Assembly (NCBI GenBank): GCA_964398665.1
Contig: CAYNNN010000001.1
Coordinates: 45,415-109,414, forward strand
DNA length: 64,000 bases
Direction of reading: 5' to 3'
Source: an uncultured Gammaproteobacteria bacterium
Lineage (GTDB): Bacteria; Pseudomonadota; Gammaproteobacteria; CAYNNN01
Part shown: piece by piece, positions 27,684 to 55,808 of the stretch
Layout: every line of letters begins with the position of its first letter
Numbering within the stretch: the first letter of the stretch is position 1
Notes under the pieces: model-generated
Told to the model about the DNA's origin: nothing
Database searches by the model: none
What the model saw: only the letters and a program-made list of their open reading frames with translations
Program-made: the position numbers and the translations under genes

Positions 27684-27760
27684 TTAGGCGCGTAGCTCAG
27701 TGGTAGAGCATCACCTTGACATGGTGGTGGTCGGTGGTTCGATCCCACTCGCGCCTACCA
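27684..27760 (+). tRNA. tRNA-Val (anticodon GAC)
   Basis: Cloverleaf folded by hand. Acceptor stem AGGCGCG/CGCGCCT with CCA, D-arm AGCTCAGTGGTAGAGC, anticodon loop TTGACAT, T-arm GGTTCGATCC. Confidence 0.85.
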
Positions 27761-27771
27761 GCCTGATTCAT

Positions 27772-27850
<79 letters not shown>

Positions 27851-38662: not shown

Positions 38663-41299
38663 ATGCCCTGGCTACCCGATCCGGCGGCGGAGCTTAAAAC
38701 GCCGCCTCACTCCTTACAGGCTGAGCAGGCCGTACTGGGTGCGTTGTTGCAGGACAATAGCGCCTGGGAGCGTATTGCCGATCGCCTGAGCGAGGTGGAC
38801 TTTTATCGGCTGGAGCACCGCCTGCTGTTTGCTGCGATTCGGGAGCTGGCCGAAGCGGGCCAGCCTTTCGATGTCGTAACGCTGGCTGACTGGCTGAATC
38901 AGCGTCAGCGCCTTGATGGCGCGGGTGGTTTGAGCTACCTGACCAGCCTGGCCCAGAATACGCCGAGTGCCAGCAACATTGTCACCTATGCCGACATCGT
39001 ACGGGAACGCGCCCTGTTGCGGGAGCTGATCCGTACCGCCAGTGATGTCGCCCAGATGGCCCACTTCCCCAAAGGCCAGTCCAGCCGGGAAATTCTGGAC
39101 AAGGCCGAAGCTCAGGTTTTTGCCATTGCCGAGCGCCACGCACGGGGCAGCGGGGGCTTTGCTCCGATCAAGTCCATCCTGGCACGGGCGATGCAGCGCA
39201 TTGAGCAGCTCAATGAACAGGATAATCCCATCACCGGGGTTGCCACCGGTTTTGACGATTTTGACCAGATGACCAGCGGCCTGCAACCCTCTGATCTGGT
39301 CATTGTGGCCGGGCGTCCGGCCATGGGCAAGACCAGCTTTGCCATGAACATCGTCGAACATGTCATCCTGCACGACAAGCGCCCGGTGGCGGTATTCAGC
39401 ATGGAAATGTCCGGGGAACAACTGGCAACCCGCATGCTGTCTTCGCTGGGCCGCATTGATCAGAGCAAGGTACGCACCGGCAGGATTGCCGAGGACGAAT
39501 GGCCCAGAATTGCCTCGGCCATCAATTTGCTGTCCAGTGCCCCGCTGTTTATTGACGATACCGGTTCCCTGACCCCGACTGAAGTCCGTGCCCGCGCCCG
39601 GCGCTTGAAACGCGAACAGCGCGACCTGGGTCTGGTGATGGTGGATTATCTCCAGTTGATGCAGGTGGCAGGAGGGGGTGAAAGCCGGGCCAATGAAATC
39701 TCGGAAATTTCCCGGTCCCTGAAGGCCCTGGCGCGCGAGCTGCACGTGCCGGTGTTGGCGCTGTCCCAGTTGAATCGGAATCTGGAACAACGTCCCAACA
39801 AGCGTCCGGTCATGTCGGATTTACGGGAATGCGTTACGGGCGATACCCTCGTGCTGCTGGCTGATGGTCGCCGATTGCCGGTGCGCACGTTGGTTGGGCA
39901 AACCCCGCAGGTCTGGTCGGTAACGTCCACCGGTGTTCTTGAGGCAGCGGCTACCGACCGGATTTGGTCGGTGGGGCGTAAGCCCCTGCTCCGTATCAGT
40001 CTTGCCAGTGGGCGCAGCATCCGCTGCTCTCTGGAGCATCGTCTACGGGGCTTGTGGGCCTGGAAACAAGCGGGTGAACTGCAAGCAGGCGACTGGTTAG
40101 CCATTGCCCGCCGGGTACCTGAGCCGCAGCAGCCACAATCCTGGTCTGAACCGGCCCTGATCCTGCTGGCGCATCTGGTGGGGAATGGGCGTTATGTCAA
40201 GCATCAGCCACTGCGTTACACCACGGCTAGTGAAGAAAATAGCCAAGCTGTCACGGCAGCAGCGCAGACTTTTGGCGCCATGGTAGCCCGTCATGCGGGA
40301 AAAGGCCCCTGGCACCAGCTGGTTATCAGTGATGGCGGCAACCACTGGCCTCCAGAGGGAATAAGCCAGTGGCTCAAGGCGTTGGGCATTTTTGGGCAAC
40401 GTTCTACTGAAAAGCGCCTGCCTACGGGCATATTTCAGCTTGCAAATTCGCAACTGGCTTTATTTCTAAGGCATTTATGGGCAACCGATGGCAGCATTCA
40501 CCTGGGTGCCAACAGGCCGCGCATTTTCTTTGCAAGCGCGAGCGTAGCGTTGGTGCACGATGTAGCAGCCCTGCTCCTGCGTTTTGGCATCATTGCCAGT
40601 GTTCGTCATGTCATTCAGGCTAATCACCAGAAAGGCCGGTTTAGCGCCGATGTTTCCGGTGCCGCCCAACAGCAAATTTTTCTGCGTGAGATCGGCGCGT
40701 TTGGGCCACACCAGGCAGCAGCTGCACAACTGCATGCTTACCTGGAAACGGTCACGCCCAATCCTGATGTGGACACCTTGCCTGAGGAGATTTTTACTTA
40801 TATCCGCACGCAAATGCACGACCGTGGCATCAGCCAGCAGCGTATGACCAGGCTGCGGGGTCCTGCGTATGGCAGCACCGCCCGCTTCAACTTTGCACCG
40901 ACTCGGACCACTGTGTGCAGTTATGCCGAACTGCTTGATGACCCCCAGTTACATCTCCTGGCCCAGGGCGATTTGTTTTGGGATCGGGTTGTACGGGTAG
41001 AGCCGGATGGAGAAGAAGAACTCTTTGATCTGACAGTGCCTGGCAATGCGTGTTGGCTGGCTGATGGGATTGTCAGCCATAACTCGGGATCGATAGAGCA
41101 GGATGCTGATGTGATCGTTTTTATTTATCGGGATGAAGTTTATAACGAAAACAGCCCGGAGAAGGGCACGGCAGAAATCATCATCGGCAAGCAGCGCAAT
41201 GGCCCAACCGGTATAGTACGCCTGACCTTTCTGGGCCAGCATACCCGGTTTGAAAATTATCTGGCACCGGAGACTTACGCGAGCCTGGGGGGTAATTGA
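38663..41299 (+). CDS. dnaB: replicative DNA helicase DnaB, intein-containing precursor
   Basis: 878 aa against about 460 for DnaB. The N- and C-exteins are typical DnaB (Walker A GRPAMGKTSF...; C-terminal ...GSIEQDADVIVFIYRDEVY...), split by an insert at ...MSDLRE|C...HN|SGSIEQ. Confidence 0.9.
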   Translation: MPWLPDPAAELKTPPHSLQAEQAVLGALLQDNSAWERIADRLSEVDFYRLEHRLLFAAIRELAEAGQPFDVVTLADWLNQRQRLDGAGGLSYLTSLAQNTPSASNIVTYADIVRERALLRELIRTASDVAQMAHFPKGQSSREILDKAEAQVFAIAERHARGSGGFAPIKSILARAMQRIEQLNEQDNPITGVATGFDDFDQMTSGLQPSDLVIVAGRPAMGKTSFAMNIVEHVILHDKRPVAVFSMEMSGEQLATRMLSSLGRIDQSKVRTGRIAEDEWPRIASAINLLSSAPLFIDDTGSLTPTEVRARARRLKREQRDLGLVMVDYLQLMQVAGGGESRANEISEISRSLKALARELHVPVLALSQLNRNLEQRPNKRPVMSDLRECVTGDTLVLLADGRRLPVRTLVGQTPQVWSVTSTGVLEAAATDRIWSVGRKPLLRISLASGRSIRCSLEHRLRGLWAWKQAGELQAGDWLAIARRVPEPQQPQSWSEPALILLAHLVGNGRYVKHQPLRYTTASEENSQAVTAAAQTFGAMVARHAGKGPWHQLVISDGGNHWPPEGISQWLKALGIFGQRSTEKRLPTGIFQLANSQLALFLRHLWATDGSIHLGANRPRIFFASASVALVHDVAALLLRFGIIASVRHVIQANHQKGRFSADVSGAAQQQIFLREIGAFGPHQAAAAQLHAYLETVTPNPDVDTLPEEIFTYIRTQMHDRGISQQRMTRLRGPAYGSTARFNFAPTRTTVCSYAELLDDPQLHLLAQGDLFWDRVVRVEPDGEEELFDLTVPGNACWLADGIVSHNSGSIEQDADVIVFIYRDEVYNENSPEKGTAEIIIGKQRNGPTGIVRLTFLGQHTRFENYLAPETYASLGGN
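39830..41083 (+). other. DnaB intein (~418 aa) with LAGLIDADG-type homing-endonuclease core
   Basis: Begins CVTGDTLVLLADG (Cys1, block A) and ends ...GIVSHN followed by Ser+1. Internal dodecapeptide-like motifs are LLAHLVGNGRY and LFLRHLWATDGSIH. The host site is the same DnaB site used by known DnaB inteins. Confidence 0.8.
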
Positions 41300-45019: not shown

Positions 45020-45611
45020 GGGCAAGCCGACCATATTCAAGATGCAGGCGCTGCACCTGAGCACCCAAGGCCTGAAGGTTGGTGGTATTCTCAATGACCT
45101 CATGCGCATGGGCCAAGCGTTCGGCATCACTGCACTGCACTGCGATGATGGCCTGCGCTTCAGCCTGAGTCAGGCCATCGCGGGTCATCAGGCGCTGAAG
45201 CTGCTGCTGGGGCGAGGTAGTGACCACCAGCACCCGCTGTAGCCAGGCAGGTCGTCCGGTTTCGACCAGCAAGGGAATGACAAACAGGCCATAAGCTGCC
45301 GTGCAGGTAGCCGCCCAGGCCTGCATCCGGGCATCAATCAGCGGGTGCAGCAAGGCTTCCAGCCCCCGGCGGGCCTCGGCGTGGGTAAAGATGTGCTGGC
45401 GCAACCGGGTCCGGTCGAGCGTGCCGTCGGGACGCAGCATGATCGGCCCAAACCGGGCTACGATGGCTGCCAGCGCCGGCTGGCCAGGCGCGACCAATTC
45501 CCGGCTGATGAGATCGGCGTCTGCAACCGGTACCCCCAGCGCGGCAAACTGGGCGGCAACAGCCGATTTACCGCTGGCAATTCCGCCGGTCAGGCCAATA
45601 GCGTATACCAT
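44994..45611 (-). CDS. coaE: dephospho-CoA kinase
   Basis: MVYAIGLTGGIASGKSAV... P-loop. Confidence 0.9.
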   Translation of the reverse strand: MVYAIGLTGGIASGKSAVAAQFAALGVPVADADLISRELVAPGQPALAAIVARFGPIMLRPDGTLDRTRLRQHIFTHAEARRGLEALLHPLIDARMQAWAATCTAAYGLFVIPLLVETGRPAWLQRVLVVTTSPQQQLQRLMTRDGLTQAEAQAIIAVQCSDAERLAHAHEVIENTTNLQALGAQVQRLHLEYGRLALMAASTGS

Positions 45612-45662
45612 GGGGTAACCTCAATTAACATTCAAATCAATATCAGAAGCTGTCTGGCGCAC

Positions 45663-47477
45663 ATGAGCACGACTGGCCGATACCTTTTATTATTATTTAT
45701 AATCAGTAGCTTATTTTCACTGTATGCCAGCTTTCTGGCCGTTGATCCCCTGGCGCAACGCAGCTGGCTTCCAGCCTACCTGATTTATCCACTAGCCTTG
45801 GCAACTGCCTTATGGGTATTGAGCCTGCTGCCGTTGTTGACTCAAACCGCCATCTCTGTCCGCTGGCAGCGCAGGCATCTGGGGGTTTTCCTGGCCATCC
45901 TGGCGGCATGGGGGTTCATGATCAGTCGCAATGCCCCGCAATTTAACATCGTTCAGGACGAATATGTGTTATCGGCAACCGCAATGAACTTGCATTATAA
46001 CCGGAGCGCTGCGGTCCCGAATCGTGGGCAATGGATTAATAACCAATATATTCTCTCAGATGGCTATCTGGATAAACGTCCTCTGTTTTTTCCGTTGGTG
46101 CTTGCCACACTCCATGATTTGCGGGGCTATGATGTGCAAAATGTCTTCTACCTGAATGCGCTGCTGGCATTGCTCTTGCTGTGGCTAAGCTATGTGCTGG
46201 TCAGGCGGCTGGGTGGAGATGATCTCAGTGCGTTATTTGCCGTCATGGCGTTGGCCTCCATTCCCCTCATCAGCCAAAGTGCTACCGGCGGTGGATTTGA
46301 GTTGCTCAATAGTGTGATGCTACTTGCCACTCTCTTGCTCGGTGCTCGCTTTAGCTGCAAGCCTGACCCACGAAGTTTAACGGCACTGGCTTACACAACT
46401 TTTCTCCTTGCCCAAACCCGCTATGAGTCTATTACGTTTGTCCTGGCAACGGGGGCACTCATCCTTTGGGTTTGGTGGCGAGAACAACGTATCATTTTAA
46501 CTTATCAAGTAGTCTTACTACCTTTATTGTTTATTTTGCCGATGCTGGCACTACAGGCCGTCGTGCTGGATCGCTACTGGTTGCAACTTGAGGATCATCA
46601 AGCGGCTGCCTTTACCTTGAATTATGCCTGGAATAATACAGCCAAGCTCATCGCTTATCTATTCCAGTTGAATCCCTACGGCGGCATGAATCCGGTCACT
46701 GCCAGTTTGCTGGTCTTTGGCCTCTTGGCCTTCCTGCGTCATTTACTGCGCCCGACCTATATCGCATTCAATCTGTTCCTTGTCATCGTATTGTGCAATT
46801 TGCTGCTGCTGATGGGATATTACTGGGGAGACATGAGCGATTTCAATGCGCGCAGATTACTGATTGTAACCCTGGTCATCATGGCCATCAGTACTGCCCT
46901 GGTGCTTAACCATTTCCCCAGGCTGCGCACGGGAGCAGGCATGGTTCTGGCGGCAGGATTTATCGGCATTACCATCCCCCATACTGGCCAACATGCTTAT
47001 GGCAATGCTATCCTGCTGCCCAAGGCAGATAGCTGGGCCTTGGCCTACTTGCGCGCTGATGATTGGGGAAATGAACGGATCTTGATTGCTAAAGATGTAT
47101 ATTTCTTTATTATTCAAAGATATAATGTGATAGGTACGGTTCATGCCCAACAGCGGGCAGAAAAGATTCGCCAGGCCAAAAATCATGCCATTGCTGATCC
47201 TTATGCTTACCAGACGTACTTTATCAACCCGGCGACTGGCAAGAAAAGCTATGTCAGCTGTCATGACATTAGCCCGCAATTTTCACTTGACCCATTGATA
47301 CATCGAGCGGTAGGCCCCTATTTATATGCCAGTATCGGTCGAGTGACAAACGTGCAGCCTGCGCCCTATGTGATGGAACAGGATGCAGCCTGTGCGCATG
47401 AAATACGCACTGGTAATGCCAACTTTCCCAAGCTGACTCAAGGGGTGCAGCAAAATTGGTTCAGCCATTATCCCTGA
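45663..47477 (+). CDS. large polytopic membrane protein, candidate GT-C-fold glycosyltransferase (paralog A), in low-GC insert
   Basis: ATG at 45663 (MSTTGRYLLLLFIISSLF...) lies after the coaE start. The track ORF extends further only in antisense. It has about 11-13 TM segments, an acidic DEY motif in the first predicted periplasmic loop, the motif YLDKRPLFFPLVLATLHD, and a roughly 150-aa soluble C-terminal domain. Local GC is visibly lower than the flanks. Confidence 0.6.
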   Translation: MSTTGRYLLLLFIISSLFSLYASFLAVDPLAQRSWLPAYLIYPLALATALWVLSLLPLLTQTAISVRWQRRHLGVFLAILAAWGFMISRNAPQFNIVQDEYVLSATAMNLHYNRSAAVPNRGQWINNQYILSDGYLDKRPLFFPLVLATLHDLRGYDVQNVFYLNALLALLLLWLSYVLVRRLGGDDLSALFAVMALASIPLISQSATGGGFELLNSVMLLATLLLGARFSCKPDPRSLTALAYTTFLLAQTRYESITFVLATGALILWVWWREQRIILTYQVVLLPLLFILPMLALQAVVLDRYWLQLEDHQAAAFTLNYAWNNTAKLIAYLFQLNPYGGMNPVTASLLVFGLLAFLRHLLRPTYIAFNLFLVIVLCNLLLLMGYYWGDMSDFNARRLLIVTLVIMAISTALVLNHFPRLRTGAGMVLAAGFIGITIPHTGQHAYGNAILLPKADSWALAYLRADDWGNERILIAKDVYFFIIQRYNVIGTVHAQQRAEKIRQAKNHAIADPYAYQTYFINPATGKKSYVSCHDISPQFSLDPLIHRAVGPYLYASIGRVTNVQPAPYVMEQDAACAHEIRTGNANFPKLTQGVQQNWFSHYP

Positions 47478-49249
47478 TGAAGCCTGCTCTCCTGATCCTG
47501 ATAAGCAGCAGTTTGGCTACGGTGCTGGCAGGAGTATTTCTGGACGCTACCTGGATAGGCTCCCATTACTACATTATCTTATTGACCTTAGGCCTATGGA
47601 TTTACTGGTCGGTGGTACGCCAAACGCTGACCTGCACAGCCACCACATGGGCTATCTTAGGCGTTAGTTTGCTGGGAACGTTATTTCTCGTTACCCGCGA
47701 GCCCATGATGTTCAAAAAGATTCCTGAGGAACCACAATCAGCACTGATAGCCATGAACCTCAGTGTGCAGCGCAAGCCAGTACTTACTGATCAAGGGATT
47801 ATGCAAGACCATGGGTTTGTTATAAAGCAGCCCTATCTTGACAAGCGTCCACTATTGTTCCCCTCGCTGCTGGCAGCCCTACACGACGGAATAGGCTATC
47901 ATCCTGGTAATGTATTTGTCCTCAATGCGATCCTGATATTTGTTTTATTAATGATATCAGCGTACATAGGATTACAACTCAATGGGTTCAGTGGAGCCAT
48001 CTTCACGATTGCCCTACTCCTGACTATCCCATTATTGGCCCAGCAGGCGACATCAGGCGGAGGAGAAATATTGCACTTGGTCATGCTGGCGAGCACGCTG
48101 CTGGCAGCCCAACGGTATCTGGCATCCCCAGACACCAACAAACTGATATCGCTACTGCTCAGTGGGTTGTTGCTGGCTCAGGTGCACACGGAGTCCGCGT
48201 TATTTCTATTACCCGTAGCGGCTGTTGCGTGTTGGGGCTGGTATAAGCAACGGCTGATTCAGCTCAATCAGAGTCTTGCCCTGATACCACTGTTATTGAT
48301 TCCCATCGTGATGCATCTGGTTTGGGTGCGGAGTTGGCCAGCCGGATTGGATTGGGGGAACAAGCTCTCGGTCAACTTGTTTGCAATGCTGGAATATTAT
48401 CTATGGTTGGCGCCATGGTCTTCAATGCACGCAACTATCGGCTGGCTCATCCTGCCCGGATTGGCCATTTTTAGCTACAGCAACCTACGAGCACTGCTGC
48501 TCGGCAAATCACTTGTTACGTCGCGGGGACCAATTCTGGTATTTGCGCCCTTCGTGTTGCTGAATCTATTGTTTCACCTTAGCCAGACCGAAGGTAATCC
48601 ACAGGAGCCGGCGCAAAGTGCGTTCACCTTGCCGCTGACACTTCTTGCCATTCTCGCCACCACGGCTCTGGTGCGCTTTACGCCACTTGTGATCAAAAGC
48701 AGCGCCATTTACCTGGCAGGCAATTTTTATTTTCTTACCTTACCGGCAACCAGCAGCCATTATTACACCACCGCATTGGGAGATGCCCATTATCTTCAGT
48801 GGGCGGAAAATTACTTTCGGCAGCGCCCCGCCACGGAGCGTTATCTGATCATCTCCAAAAAGAATGCGCTATTTTTGCTCAATCACCAATCCAGCCTCAT
48901 CCAGAACATTGCCATATTGCGTGCTACGCAAGTGCAGAACCTGCTGAACCAAAAGCTGGTGGATACTGTTTATGTCCTGCAGAGTCTCTATTTCGATCCC
49001 GTCACGCAAGATTTCCAGATAGCCCCCGGCCACGCACTGGGCAAGCAGTATCAATTGGAACCCCTAGCCCGCTACCGCTTTAATTTGATGGAGGTTGCGC
49101 AAATCAGCCAAGTGGTTGCCATCACGCCTGATCCTGCGGACAGACCCGCTCATTACCCAGGGTTCGTTGAAGAAGCGCGCACAGGCAAGTTACCCAGACC
49201 GCCGATCAGCCCGACACATATTCAGGAGCAGGCCCAGCGCCTGCCCTGA
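47477..49249 (+). CDS. large polytopic membrane protein, candidate GT-C-fold glycosyltransferase (paralog B)
   Basis: ATG at 47477 overlaps the stop of paralog A (ATGA). It has the same architecture and the shared motif PYLDKRPLLFPSLLAALHD, with a soluble C-terminal domain. It ends 10 nt from the pilD stop, and the two genes are convergent. Confidence 0.6.
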   Translation: MKPALLILISSSLATVLAGVFLDATWIGSHYYIILLTLGLWIYWSVVRQTLTCTATTWAILGVSLLGTLFLVTREPMMFKKIPEEPQSALIAMNLSVQRKPVLTDQGIMQDHGFVIKQPYLDKRPLLFPSLLAALHDGIGYHPGNVFVLNAILIFVLLMISAYIGLQLNGFSGAIFTIALLLTIPLLAQQATSGGGEILHLVMLASTLLAAQRYLASPDTNKLISLLLSGLLLAQVHTESALFLLPVAAVACWGWYKQRLIQLNQSLALIPLLLIPIVMHLVWVRSWPAGLDWGNKLSVNLFAMLEYYLWLAPWSSMHATIGWLILPGLAIFSYSNLRALLLGKSLVTSRGPILVFAPFVLLNLLFHLSQTEGNPQEPAQSAFTLPLTLLAILATTALVRFTPLVIKSSAIYLAGNFYFLTLPATSSHYYTTALGDAHYLQWAENYFRQRPATERYLIISKKNALFLLNHQSSLIQNIAILRATQVQNLLNQKLVDTVYVLQSLYFDPVTQDFQIAPGHALGKQYQLEPLARYRFNLMEVAQISQVVAITPDPADRPAHYPGFVEEARTGKLPRPPISPTHIQEQAQRLP

Positions 49250-53254: not shown

Positions 53255-53680
53255 CTACAGCGCGATATCTTTGGTGAAACTGGCCTGCTCCACACCGTTG
53301 TAGGAAACGCGCAAGGTGTAGCAGGTCTGGGTTGCGGTAGTGGCACAAGCCTGAGTGCTGATGGCGTAGGTATACAGCCCCTTGTCGCCATTGGGAACCC
53401 AGTTCAGGGTGGTCTTGAGCGTGCAGGTTGCACAACAGCCCTCGGCAGTCGCCGCACAGGGCGTCCATTGAATGCCATTCAGGGCGGTAATGACGCCGTT
53501 ATTCTCGATGCCATAATTTTCCACGGCCAGGCGCAGGTTTTCCATATTGGCGCGAGCGGCCCCCCGCTGACCTTCACTGATGAAACCGTTATAGGCCGGG
53601 ATGGCGAAGGCTGCCAGGATGCCCACAATGGCAACCACGATCATCAGCTCGGCCAAGGTGAAACCGTGTTGGGTCTGCAT
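53255..53680 (-). CDS. pilA: type IVa pilin (paralog 1; Cys/Thr-rich C-terminal domain)
   Basis: [31 protein letters not shown] is a class III leader with Gly-1/Phe+1 and Glu+5. The 135-aa mature protein has 6 Cys and a Thr/Ala-rich stretch (CAATAEGCCATCTLKTT, ACATTATQTC). Confidence 0.85.
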   Translation of the reverse strand: MQTQHGFTLAELMIVVAIVGILAAFAIPAYNGFISEGQRGAARANMENLRLAVENYGIENNGVITALNGIQWTPCAATAEGCCATCTLKTTLNWVPNGDKGLYTYAISTQACATTATQTCYTLRVSYNGVEQASFTKDIAL

Positions 53681-53707
53681 GGTGAGGACTCCAGAACGCC
53701 AAAGACA

Positions 53708-53729
53708 GCACCTGCCCTGGGGCAGGTGC
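53708..53729 (-). other. strong GC hairpin between pilin 2 and pilin 1 (possible attenuator/partial terminator)
   Basis: gcacctgccc-tg-gggcaggtgc is a 10-bp perfect stem. On the minus-strand RNA it is followed by UGUCUUUGGCGUUC, an imperfect U-tract. Confidence 0.35.
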
Positions 53730-53759
53730 CTGCATCAGCCTGAATGCCAGGCGCAGGTC

Positions 53760-54212
53760 TTAGATCTGCGCGCCGTTGATGCTGACGGTTTCCTGGGCCA
53801 GGTCAAGATATTGCGGACGATCCAGGGTGATGGTGGAGTTGGCGACCGAGCCATCGGCGAAGGTATTGTCCAGGGTCACGCCGATGACCCCGTTGGTGGT
53901 GCCGGCACTGGCCGCATAGGCAGGCACGCCACCTTCCGGTGCCGCCTTGTTTTCGGGGTTCAGAACCTCGGTAATAAGTTCGTCCGTGTTAGCGCAGCAG
54001 GTGGGAGTACCATTACGGGCCACCACGGCAACGGCCTTGGACAACTCCGACTTGGCAGAGCGGTAGCCTTCGTCATAGTTGCTGGTCACCTTGGACATCT
54101 TGGCTTCACGGATGTAGTTGTTGTAAGCCGGGATGGCGATGGCGGCCAAGATGCCGATGATGGCAACGACGATCATCAGTTCGATTAAGGTAAAACCTTG
54201 CGTCTTTTTCAT
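53760..54212 (-). CDS. type IVa pilin (paralog 2)
   Basis: The ATG at 54212 has AGGAG 7 nt upstream. [38 protein letters not shown]..., 150 aa, with a single CC pair. The longer track ORF is a spurious 5' extension. Confidence 0.85.
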
Positions 54213-54275
54213 GGTCATGCTCCTGAATGGGTGATTACCACGCGGGCCACATGCCCTGCGCTTGCCCTGGAATAT

Positions 54276-54292
54276 AGCACAGCCCATGCCAG
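54276..54292 (-). promoter_or_regulatory. sigma-54 promoter for pilin 2
   Basis: Minus strand reads CTGGCATGGGCTGTGCTATATT (TGGCAT-N5-GTGCT; GG-N10-GC). It lies about 65 nt 5' of the pilin 2 ATG. Confidence 0.5.
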
Positions 54293-54448
54293 GATGGGAC
54301 AGGGGCCTGCATGAGCCCCGGAAGGAAGGCTTTTTGTGACCGCCCGCACACAAACGGGCAGTCATCTCGGTGTCCGGGGCGGGGCGGCAGCGGCACAATT
54401 TGCCAGAGCTTGCCGTTTTTGGGCACATTGTGACACGGCTCCACGCGG

Positions 54449-54883
54449 CTAAATTTCGGCCGGGTCTATCACGGTGGATTCGGCACCCATGCCGAAATAA
54501 TCGGGGCGATCGATCACCAGCATACGGCCATTCAGACTGATGCCGACCACCCCATTGGTGGCGTCAGGCATTGTCGCGTAGGCCGGGACATAACCGGCTG
54601 GAGCCAGCTTGTTATCTGGATTGATCACGTCGATCCATTCCAATGTCGTATGGTCGGTCAAAGGCAGACCACGGGCACGCTGGACTTCAATGCGTCCAAA
54701 CTCGGCGCGGGCCGCACGATAAGCCTCATCATAATTACTGATGACATGACTGATTTGGGCCTCCCTGATGTAGCTGTTGTAAGCCGGGATGGCGAAAGAC
54801 GCGAGCATGCCGATGATGGCCACGACGATCATCAGCTCGATGAGCGTGAATCCGGATTGCCGCCGGCCGGGATGCTGTGCCAT
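54449..54883 (-). CDS. type IVa pilin (paralog 3; longer leader, no Cys)
   Basis: The ATG at 54883 gives [43 protein letters not shown].... It is closely related to paralog 2, and the mature protein has no cysteines. Confidence 0.85.
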
Positions 54884-54922: not shown

Positions 54923-54938
54923 TGCAGCATCCATGCCA
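54923..54938 (-). promoter_or_regulatory. sigma-54 promoter for pilin 3 (overlaps divergent GT2 start codon)
   Basis: Minus strand reads TGTGGCATGGATGCTGCAACC (TGGCAT-N5-CTGCA; GG-N10-GC), nearly identical to the pilin 2 promoter. It lies about 35 nt 5' of the pilin 3 ATG. Confidence 0.5.
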
Positions 54939-55808
54939 CAGACTCTCCCAGCGCTTAGCATCATCCTGCCGTGTCGCAATGAGGCCCTGAGCCTGCCGCA
55001 ATTGCTCAGCGAGCTGCATCAGATTTATCCGGACGCCGAGCGGATCGTGGTGGACGATGGCTCTGACGACGACTCTGCGGCCATCGCCCGCCAGTGCGGC
55101 GCCCTGGTCGTACGCCATCCCTACCCGCAGGGCAACGGCGCGGCCATCAAGACCGGGGCGCGCACTGCAACTGCGCCGGTGCTAGTGTTCATGGACGCCG
55201 ATGGCCAGCACCAACCGGATGATATTGCCCGGCTGCTGGCCAAACTGGATGTCGGTTATGCGATGGCGGTAGGCGCCCGTTCCGCCCAATCTCAGGCCAG
55301 TGTCGGGCGCTGGGCGGCCAACACCCTGTATAACCGCCTGTCCAGTTGGATGGTGGGCCAGCGGATTGAAGACCTGACTTCCGGGTTTCGGGCCGTACAG
55401 GCGCCCTTGTTTCGGGAGTTCCTGTATCTGCTGCCCAATGGCTTTTCCTACCCGACCACGATCACGATGGCCTTCTTCCGCAGCGCCTATCCGGTCGCCT
55501 ATGTGCCGATTGTGGCCCTGCAACGCCAGGGCAAAAGTCACATCCGCCCGCTGCGGGATGGCGCCCGCTTCCTGTTGATCATCTTCCGGGTTGCCACCTT
55601 GTATGCCCCGGTAAAATTATTCCTGCCCATCAGCCTGACTTTCTTCACGCTGGGCTTGGGTAATTATCTCTATACCTTCATGGTCGCCGGGCGCTTCACC
55701 AACATGAGTGCCCTGCTGTTCATCACCGCGATGCTGGTATTTCTCATCGGCCTGATTTCAGAACAGATCACCAACCTGCTCTTTGCCTACGGGGCCAAGC
55801 GTGAGTAG
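54933..55808 (+). CDS. GT2 polyprenyl-phosphate sugar synthase (GtrB/ArnC/DPM-synthase-like) with C-terminal double TM anchor
   Basis: [14 protein letters not shown]..., VVDDGSDD and FMDADGQH (DxD), then two C-terminal TM helices, the GtrB/ArnC architecture. 291 aa. Confidence 0.85.

Follow-up and report, generated by a model that had tools for sequence, protein, structure and literature searches.

Why would a locus for one type IVa pilus carry three pilin genes in a row, and do these genes encode alternative subunits or parts of one fibre? This question is raised by a stretch of 64,000 nucleotides from contig CAYNNN010000001.1 of an uncultured Gammaproteobacteria bacterium (the window), in which pilin 3, pilin 2 and pilin 1 are followed, in this order on the minus strand, by pilB, pilC and pilD (both strands were read). 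An earlier note on this DNA described the three genes as tandem paralogs and proposed either phase or antigenic alternatives or a heteropolymeric fibre. We consider it probable, at about 0.6, that this is a single type IVa pilus locus of the order pilS-pilR, major pilin, companion pilin, pilB-pilC-pilD, in which the major pilin has been duplicated.

Open reading frames (ORFs), Pfam and NCBIfam confirmed that the strand of pilBCD carries three intact pilin genes, each with an N_methyl prepilin motif and a TIGR02532 match above cut-off, and the leader lengths, cysteine counts, coordinates and absence of frameshifts reported earlier were all correct (Table 1). Every leader ends in glycine followed by FTL(I/A)ELM, and Gly-1, Phe1, Glu5 and Pro22, the latter within an AIPAY motif, are present in all three pilins. 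A class III leader with Phe1 and Glu5 in each pilin, and pilB, pilC and pilD immediately 3’ on the same strand, assign the locus to the type IVa systems. A C-terminal disulfide-bonded D-region is typical of type IVa pilins, although not obligatory. It is lacking here: pilin 3 has no cysteine, pilin 2 possesses only a vicinal pair, their whole family is without it, and the cysteine-bounded loop of pilin 1 is situated between strands 1 and 2 and not in a C-terminal D-region. The closest named pil loci, judged by PilB, are those of Chromatiales metagenome-assembled genomes (63-69% identical) and of a tubeworm endosymbiont (66%).

Pairwise comparison upheld the claim of paralogy for two of the three genes. 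Pilins 2 and 3 are full-length paralogs, with 49% identity along their whole length and an indel of 9 residues in the globular part, whereas the likeness of pilin 1 to both of them is confined to the N-terminal helix and this protein belongs to another pilin family. A search with pilin 2 against 5.8 billion proteins retrieved a large family, including many members annotated as PilA, with a common 20-residue core, a conserved C-terminal RP.YLD and, in nearly all members, no cysteine at all. This cysteine-free major pilin family and the companion pilin family described below were both defined in this analysis. On the profile of the former, pilin 2, its top-scoring member, scored 202 bits and pilin 3 about 155-160, with the companion profile giving at most 76 bits (scores taken from identical gene copies in locus L001, plus L004). 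As judged from the family alignment, the lack of cysteines in pilin 3, which had been remarked on earlier, is thus the family norm, and the adjacent cysteine pair of pilin 2 (TCCA) is the oddity. The pair is kept in the pilin 2 of a close relative (L004), which is 91% identical to that of the window; it could form a vicinal disulfide, bind metal or cross-link subunits.

Pilin 2 is probably the main subunit because it has the better ribosome-binding site (AGGAG, 7 nt 5’ of the start), the strongest codon bias and the lowest synonymous divergence. Its effective number of codons (Nc = 39.9) is the lowest of the pil genes, while pilin 3 shows the weakest codon bias among them (Nc = 49.8). The proportion of synonymous differences (pS) from the close relative amounts to 0.446 in pilin 2, compared to 0.64-0.78 in the other four genes compared. 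Low pS and low Nc would be consistent with a highly expressed major subunit.

Both major pilin genes are preceded by a sigma-54-type promoter. The pattern search that matched the pilin 3 promoter returned 3 matches in 64 kb versus 0.85 expected, and a further sigma-54 pattern search returned six versus 1.8 expected. The pilin 2 promoter is conserved in L004 as TGGCATGGCCTGTGCT, as is the upstream block with a 16-nt motif, amid an otherwise diverged spacer. The window has just two copies of this motif (GCCGTGTCRCAATGWG), in opposite orientations and each 5’ of a pilin sigma-54-type promoter. The motif contains a GTGTC core, which is part of the PilR binding sites of P. aeruginosa. The pilR and pilS genes, recognised as ORFs with tblastn matches, are located about 2.9 kb beyond pilin 3, past a GT2 glycosyltransferase gene and a gene for a 666-aa membrane protein. 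They match by tblastn the pilS-pilR genes preceding pilins in L006, L012, L045 and L055, and the equivalent genes in L174-L176 were identified by their Pfam domains. Since pilins 2 and 3 each have a sigma-54-type promoter together with the common 16-nt motif, they are probably PilS-PilR/sigma-54 dependent and co-regulated by the adjacent PilS-PilR pair. In related loci, the strict sigma-54 pattern precedes 6 of 13 major pilin genes and occurs in none of 11 spacers between major and companion pilin.

The same promoter type and upstream motif argue for co-expression of pilins 2 and 3 rather than for the alternative expression that had been suggested. Likely co-expression would also suit a heteropolymeric fibre, built from two or all three pilins in similar quantities, and all three genes keep the N-terminus needed for assembly and evolve under purifying selection. 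The precedent is the heteropolymeric pilus of PilE1 and PilE2 in Streptococcus sanguinis (PMC10628169). However, pilins 2 and 3 share only 49% identity and differ by the indel in their globular domain, their codon bias is markedly different (39.9 versus 49.8), and most related loci have a single major copy, so that the duplication is not needed for fibre assembly. We therefore regard co-assembly in comparable amounts as rather unlikely. The likeness to S. sanguinis lies in adjacent paralogous major pilins that are possibly co-expressed; this organism is a monoderm, and its PilE1 and PilE2 are much more alike than pilins 2 and 3 of the window.

Profile comparison shows that pilin 1 is a member of a distinct, conserved companion-pilin family and no paralog of pilins 2 and 3. 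Its nearest relative is 83% identical, and the next ones are 46-48% identical over 72-74% of the length. The family, of about 125-145 aa, was coherent in a profile search of 1.84 billion cluster representatives, with 28 clusters (50% identity) at E<=1e-30, and the best 150 clusters, all at E<=6e-20, were mostly near full-length matches. The conserved companion positions N45, E54, W94-x-P96-x-x-D99 and Y105 are all present in pilin 1. AlphaFold produced a pilin-like model with a mean predicted local distance difference test (pLDDT) score of 77.5, for which a Foldseek search against the Protein Data Bank (PDB) found no significant match (best E = 0.26). The PilE/ComP domain PF16732 matched pilin 1 with 21.7 bits, under its gathering cut-off of 27.3, and was weak in several other family members too. 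A ComP-like DNA-receptor role was considered and rejected given this sub-threshold match and an acidic protein (isoelectric point 4.9) with no basic patch; nor is pilin 1 encoded in an operon of the fimU-pilVWXY1E type.

Scans of genomes and metagenomes for loci relied on a generic N-terminal pilin pattern, and the matches listed were mostly unrelated pilins, from which members of the major and companion families were sorted out by purpose-built profiles. In addition to the window, a companion gene lies directly 3’ of a cysteine-free major pilin gene in 11 independent related loci with both flanks readable (L006, L007, L009, L010, L012, L086, L088, L096, L174, L175 and L176). In 8 of these 11 pilB directly follows the companion, and in the other 3 it lies beyond the major pilin in divergent orientation. 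The typical related locus reads pilS-pilR-major-companion-pilB-pilC-pilD-coaE-zapD. Most of these loci have a single major copy; two majors with a companion arise independently also in L088 and L010. The three-gene order of the window is kept in a close relative represented by two overlapping contigs, one with pilin 2, pilin 1 and pilBCD (L003), the other with pilin 3, pilin 2 and the start of pilin 1 (L004). Thus, the layout of a duplicated major pilin plus a companion recurs in related uncultured Gammaproteobacteria.

Multiplicity as such, which gave the locus its initial interest, is ordinary. Among 77 sampled pilin-bearing loci, at least two tandem prepilin genes on the same strand were found in 21 and at least three in 3, so that a single major pilin per locus, previously taken as the rule, is too strong a generalisation, and several pilin genes per locus are already known. 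In Legionella pneumophila the role of major pilin is taken by PilA2 and not by PilA1 (PMC13170364), and PilA1-3 of Xylella fastidiosa confer differing phenotypes (PMC9956873). As in the window, two to three related full-length type IVa pilin genes occur per genome in these species, in one locus in Legionella, and one copy acts as the main subunit while the others have modified roles. In contrast to both, the duplicated pilin of the window is of the cysteine-free family and the third gene is of another family with a fixed place before pilB.

How might pilin 1 be expressed? No conserved promoter of its own was found in the spacer between pilins 2 and 1 compared with the relative, and no sigma-54-type promoter in the 11 related spacers. 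A sigma-54 promoter proposed by eye (TGGCATTCAGGCTGAT) was rejected, as its -12 element reads GA instead of GC and conservation in the relative is lacking. In this spacer, 3’ of pilin 2, a hairpin followed by a U-rich tract forms a putative intrinsic terminator or attenuator. Its stem is kept in L003/L004, where a single A-U pair has become G-U and the U-tract is better (TTGTTTTTGT after the stem), and equivalent hairpins are found 3’ of the major pilin in L087 and L174-L176. The lack of a conserved promoter and the position behind a terminator suggest low expression, which bears on the proposal that pilin 1 forms a thinner or specialised filament of its own on the same machine, like PilA5 beside PilA4 in Thermus thermophilus. 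Its major-pilin hallmarks and its conserved, dedicated place beside pilB would fit this proposal, and for Thermus two filament types from one bacterium are described (PMC7203116). Besides the signs of low expression, the window showed no second assembly ATPase, and we hold a separate pilin 1 filament to be improbable.

To assess constraint we used pS and the corresponding proportion of nonsynonymous differences (pN), both relative to the close relative. The values were pN 0.093 and pS 0.728 for pilin 1, 0.054 and 0.446 for pilin 2, and 0.119 and 0.781 for pilin 3 (against L004). Because pN is far below pS in each case, these comparisons indicate purifying selection on all three genes, and none of them is a decaying pseudogene, an alternative that had been named before. 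The weak codon bias and the atypically long leader of pilin 3 might be taken to mean that one or two of the genes survive as remnants without function. Intact reading frames, a pN/pS of ~0.13 to 0.15 for pilins 1 and 3 and conserved synteny make this reading scarcely credible.

The proposed phase or antigenic variation, in which paralogs are swapped by recombination or are mutually exclusive in expression, fared little better. The tandem copies do share 71-76% identical N-terminal coding DNA, and the length of the pilin 1 surface loop varies among close relatives. Nevertheless, these homologous segments are the sole direct repeats, no two of the pilin genes share an exact match longer than 21 nt, and the inverted repeats are short and imperfect. 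The pilin region yielded no convincing inverted repeats, invertible segment or silent or promoterless cassettes, and the genes from pilS to pilD include none for a recombinase or invertase. An invertible element or a gene-conversion mechanism was rejected on these grounds. Moreover, every gene is complete and constrained, and the regulatory signals of pilin 2 are also those of pilin 3. Altogether, we judge such variation very improbable, only a little less so than decay of the genes.

On the preferred reading of a duplicated major pilin with a companion, pilin 2 would be the principal fibre subunit, with its sigma-54/PilR-type promoter, strong ribosome-binding site, strongest codon bias and the terminator hairpin after it. 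Pilin 3 would be an older diverged copy (49%) with its own sigma-54-type promoter, probably made alongside pilin 2, and may either enter the same fibre or make up a fraction of the fibres. Pilin 1 would probably be transcribed at a lower level by terminator read-through, together with pilBCD, and could act as a low-abundance subunit in priming, at the tip or as a modulator, carrying extra disulfide-stabilised surface loops.

Several observations weigh against this reading. In L008 a family-type major pilin occurs without a companion. Pilin 1 bears all hallmarks of a major type IVa pilin, namely a short leader, Glu5 and Pro22, and might thus be not a minor but a second major subunit. The U-tract of the window hairpin is interrupted and its fold is unexceptional compared to shuffled sequences (z = -1.4). 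A sigma-70-like match is located between pilin 1 and pilB, so pilB may not need read-through. Finally, which pilin polymerises is a point that we infer from promoters, codon bias and synteny.

The six cysteines of the pilin 1 precursor (C74, C81, C82, C85, C111 and C120), within TPCAATAEGCCATC...QACATTATQTC, fall into two groups. Many family members have an ACx(n)CY loop between strands 1 and 2, and it is with this loop that C111 and C120 align. Their spacing varies among ~83%-identical relatives in which all six cysteines are retained, and on this evidence C111-C120 appears to behave as a variable surface loop closed by a disulfide. The remaining four, C74, C81, C82 and C85, are part of an insertion of the alpha-beta loop exclusive to this lineage. 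These four probably form two further disulfides, and for them the previously raised idea of a disulfide knot would be plausible. Residues 71-90 are the least confident internal stretch of the AlphaFold model (mean pLDDT 64-66), and the disulfide pairing is therefore unreadable from it. Among 132 companion representatives, 32 have no cysteine, 52 have two, 33 have four and 4 have six. Many companions (L006, L174, L175, P0390-P0405) end in a four-cysteine tail, W.RCE.RM..CC(6-12)C-P, which pilin 1 lacks; its C-x6-CC-x2-C insertion recalls the RCExRMxxCC...C tail by spacing alone. A gene for a DsbC-type disulfide isomerase lies ~115 bp from the pilS start. Its vicinity could be coincidence; pilins with several disulfides, such as pilin 1, are however the sort of protein for which an isomerase is required.

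The earlier note also saw a dense O-glycosylation surface in the Thr/Ala/Cys-rich stretch of pilin 1. Pilin glycosylation is plausible, with indirect support from the neighbouring genes and not from this stretch. Divergent from pilin 3 are the genes for the GT2 glycosyltransferase and the 666-aa membrane protein, the latter ~900 bp away with only GT2 between. The best NCBIfam resemblances of GT2 are to AglJ, dolichyl-phosphate hexose transferase and PpgS, all under the equivalog cut-offs, and by these matches it resembles polyprenyl-phosphate sugar synthases. The 666-aa protein was modelled by AlphaFold with a mean pLDDT of 90.8 as ~11 long helices followed by tetratricopeptide (TPR) repeats. 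In 44 homologs the motifs FxFDD, RP, KE, HDD and EHRNY are invariant, with D34-D35, R71, K205-E206, H303-D304-D305 and E367-H-R-N-Y371 as the invariant residues. FMFDDA at residues 31-36 corresponds to the TfpW-type DDX motif in the first periplasmic loop, likewise invariant in the 44 homologs.

Two known proteins resemble this architecture. P. aeruginosa TfpW is a pilin arabinosyltransferase of 646 aa with 11 predicted helices, a DDX motif in the first periplasmic loop and a C-terminal TPR, encoded beside the group IV pilin gene (bioRxiv 10.1101/2020.04.19.049825). Compared by this published description, the window protein has the same architecture, an FxFDD motif and a pilin-adjacent gene. 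It differs in that the TfpW motif YX6PFX7P of loop 4 is absent from it and from nine pilA-adjacent homologs, in that the putative donor gene is a GT2 polyprenyl-phosphate sugar synthase and not a D-arabinofuranose pathway, and in that the TPR/GT2 module is also found away from pilins. With the eukaryotic protein O-mannosyltransferases TMTC1-4 of the GT-C/PMT clan it has in common 11 helices plus luminal or periplasmic TPR and, in order, DD, RP, KE, an acidic residue in loop 4 and E/R/Y (PMC7801869); order and similar spacing agree with TMTC motifs M1, M2, M4, M5 and M7 (PMC7801869). The TMTC resemblance is confined to motifs and architecture: Pfam gave only TPR matches across the 44 homologs and neither DUF1736 nor PMT_2, a PDB sequence profile search with the membrane domain alone had no match even at E = 10, and in a Foldseek search of the model against the PDB the TPR part alone matched.

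Homologs of the 666-aa protein are encoded directly beside pilA in seven other genomes (L023, L045, L050, L054, L055, L063 and L085); L054 is the only one of these loci with no GT2 gene close by. Of four homologs picked irrespective of pilins, none is near a pilin gene, two are beside O-antigen ABC-transporter genes and three have a GT2 partner. The TPR-membrane and GT2 genes usually form a two-gene unit (L090-L093, L045, L050, L055, L063, L085), in which the stop codon of one gene often overlaps the start codon of the other; L091 has the TPR-membrane gene without a GT2 partner. The module is thus a credible, non-specific candidate for pilin O-glycosylation, and GT2 together with the TMTC/TfpW-like protein may glycosylate one or more pilins in the periplasm.

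Further glycosyltransferase genes lie on the other side of the pil genes, where two tandem PMT_2-type GT-C membrane glycosyltransferase paralogs (29% identical, E = 2e-46) are convergent with pilD. The true start of the first is probably near Met107. They occupy a low-GC island (0.48-0.52 versus 0.58-0.62 nearby) at the place held by coaE-zapD in relatives, and the island (45345-49249) looks like a horizontally acquired insertion. Elsewhere in the window, a replicative helicase gene is split by an intein, and Rfam matched only two adjacent tRNA genes and no rRNA gene.

Table 1. Features of the pilus locus and its surroundings, in window positions.
Feature	Position	Strand	Description
pilin 3	54883-54449	minus	144 aa; leader of 11 aa; no Cys; diverged duplicate of the cysteine-free major pilin
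pilin 2	54212-53760	minus	150 aa; leader MKKTQG (6 aa); 2 adjacent Cys; probable principal major pilin
TCCA pair of pilin 2	53995-54000	minus	vicinal Cys codons
pilin 1	53680-53255	minus	141 aa; leader MQTQHG (6 aa), then FTLAELM; 6 Cys; companion pilin
pilB	53183-51453	minus	assembly ATPase; Pfam T2SSE/MshEN
pilC	51449-50157	minus	platform protein; Pfam T2SSF
pilD	50119-49259	minus	prepilin peptidase; Pfam Peptidase_A24
pilR	59098-57734	minus	sigma-54 activator
pilS	60691-59102	minus	sensor kinase
sigma-54-type promoter of pilin 3	54923-54938	minus	TGGCATGGATGCTGCA; ends 39 nt 5’ of ATG; overlaps divergent GT2 start codon
sigma-54-type promoter of pilin 2	54276-54291	minus	TGGCATGGGCTGTGCT; ends 63 nt 5’ of ATG
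candidate PilR enhancer motif	54968-54983	plus	GCCGTGTCGCAATGAG; 5’ of pilin 3 promoter, inside GT2 coding sequence; putative function
candidate PilR enhancer motif	54424-54439	minus	GCCGTGTCACAATGTG; 5’ of pilin 2 promoter; putative function
hairpin and U-rich tract	53700-53735	minus	GCACCTGCC-CCAG-GGCAGGTGC; 3’ of pilin 2; putative intrinsic terminator or attenuator
GT2 glycosyltransferase	54933-55808	plus	Pfam Glycos_transf_2 3e-27; C-terminal membrane helices, hydrophobic segments at residues 213-276
666-aa membrane protein	55783-57783	plus	~11 helices and C-terminal TPR repeats; TMTC/TfpW-like candidate protein glycosyltransferase
DsbC-type disulfide isomerase	60807-61682	minus	
PMT_2-type paralog, first	45345-47477	plus	GT-C membrane glycosyltransferase
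PMT_2-type paralog, second	47456-49249	plus	GT-C membrane glycosyltransferase
DnaB replicative helicase	38663-41299	plus	intein with LAGLIDADG homing-endonuclease domain
two tRNA genes	27686-27845	plus	

A more speculative extension, which we consider doubtful, is that the companion may be an obligate partner of cysteine-free major pilins, serving for example as primer, cap or stabiliser that makes up for the missing D-region disulfide and being kept scarce by the terminator. Together with the four-cysteine insertion of this lineage and the TMTC-like glycosylation module, this would make the locus a distinct type IVa sub-type, widespread in uncultured Gammaproteobacteria. Limited literature searches found no description of a large cysteine-free major pilin family with a strictly linked small pilin before pilB, or of the TPR/GT2 module beside pilins. 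The module, present at pilin genes of several Gammaproteobacteria, would be a candidate for pilin glycosylation by a system other than TfpO or the TfpW system based on arabinose. Contigs with a 91%-identical pilin 2 include one from an activated-sludge metagenome, and the surface chemistry of such pili could affect flocculation and phage susceptibility in activated sludge.

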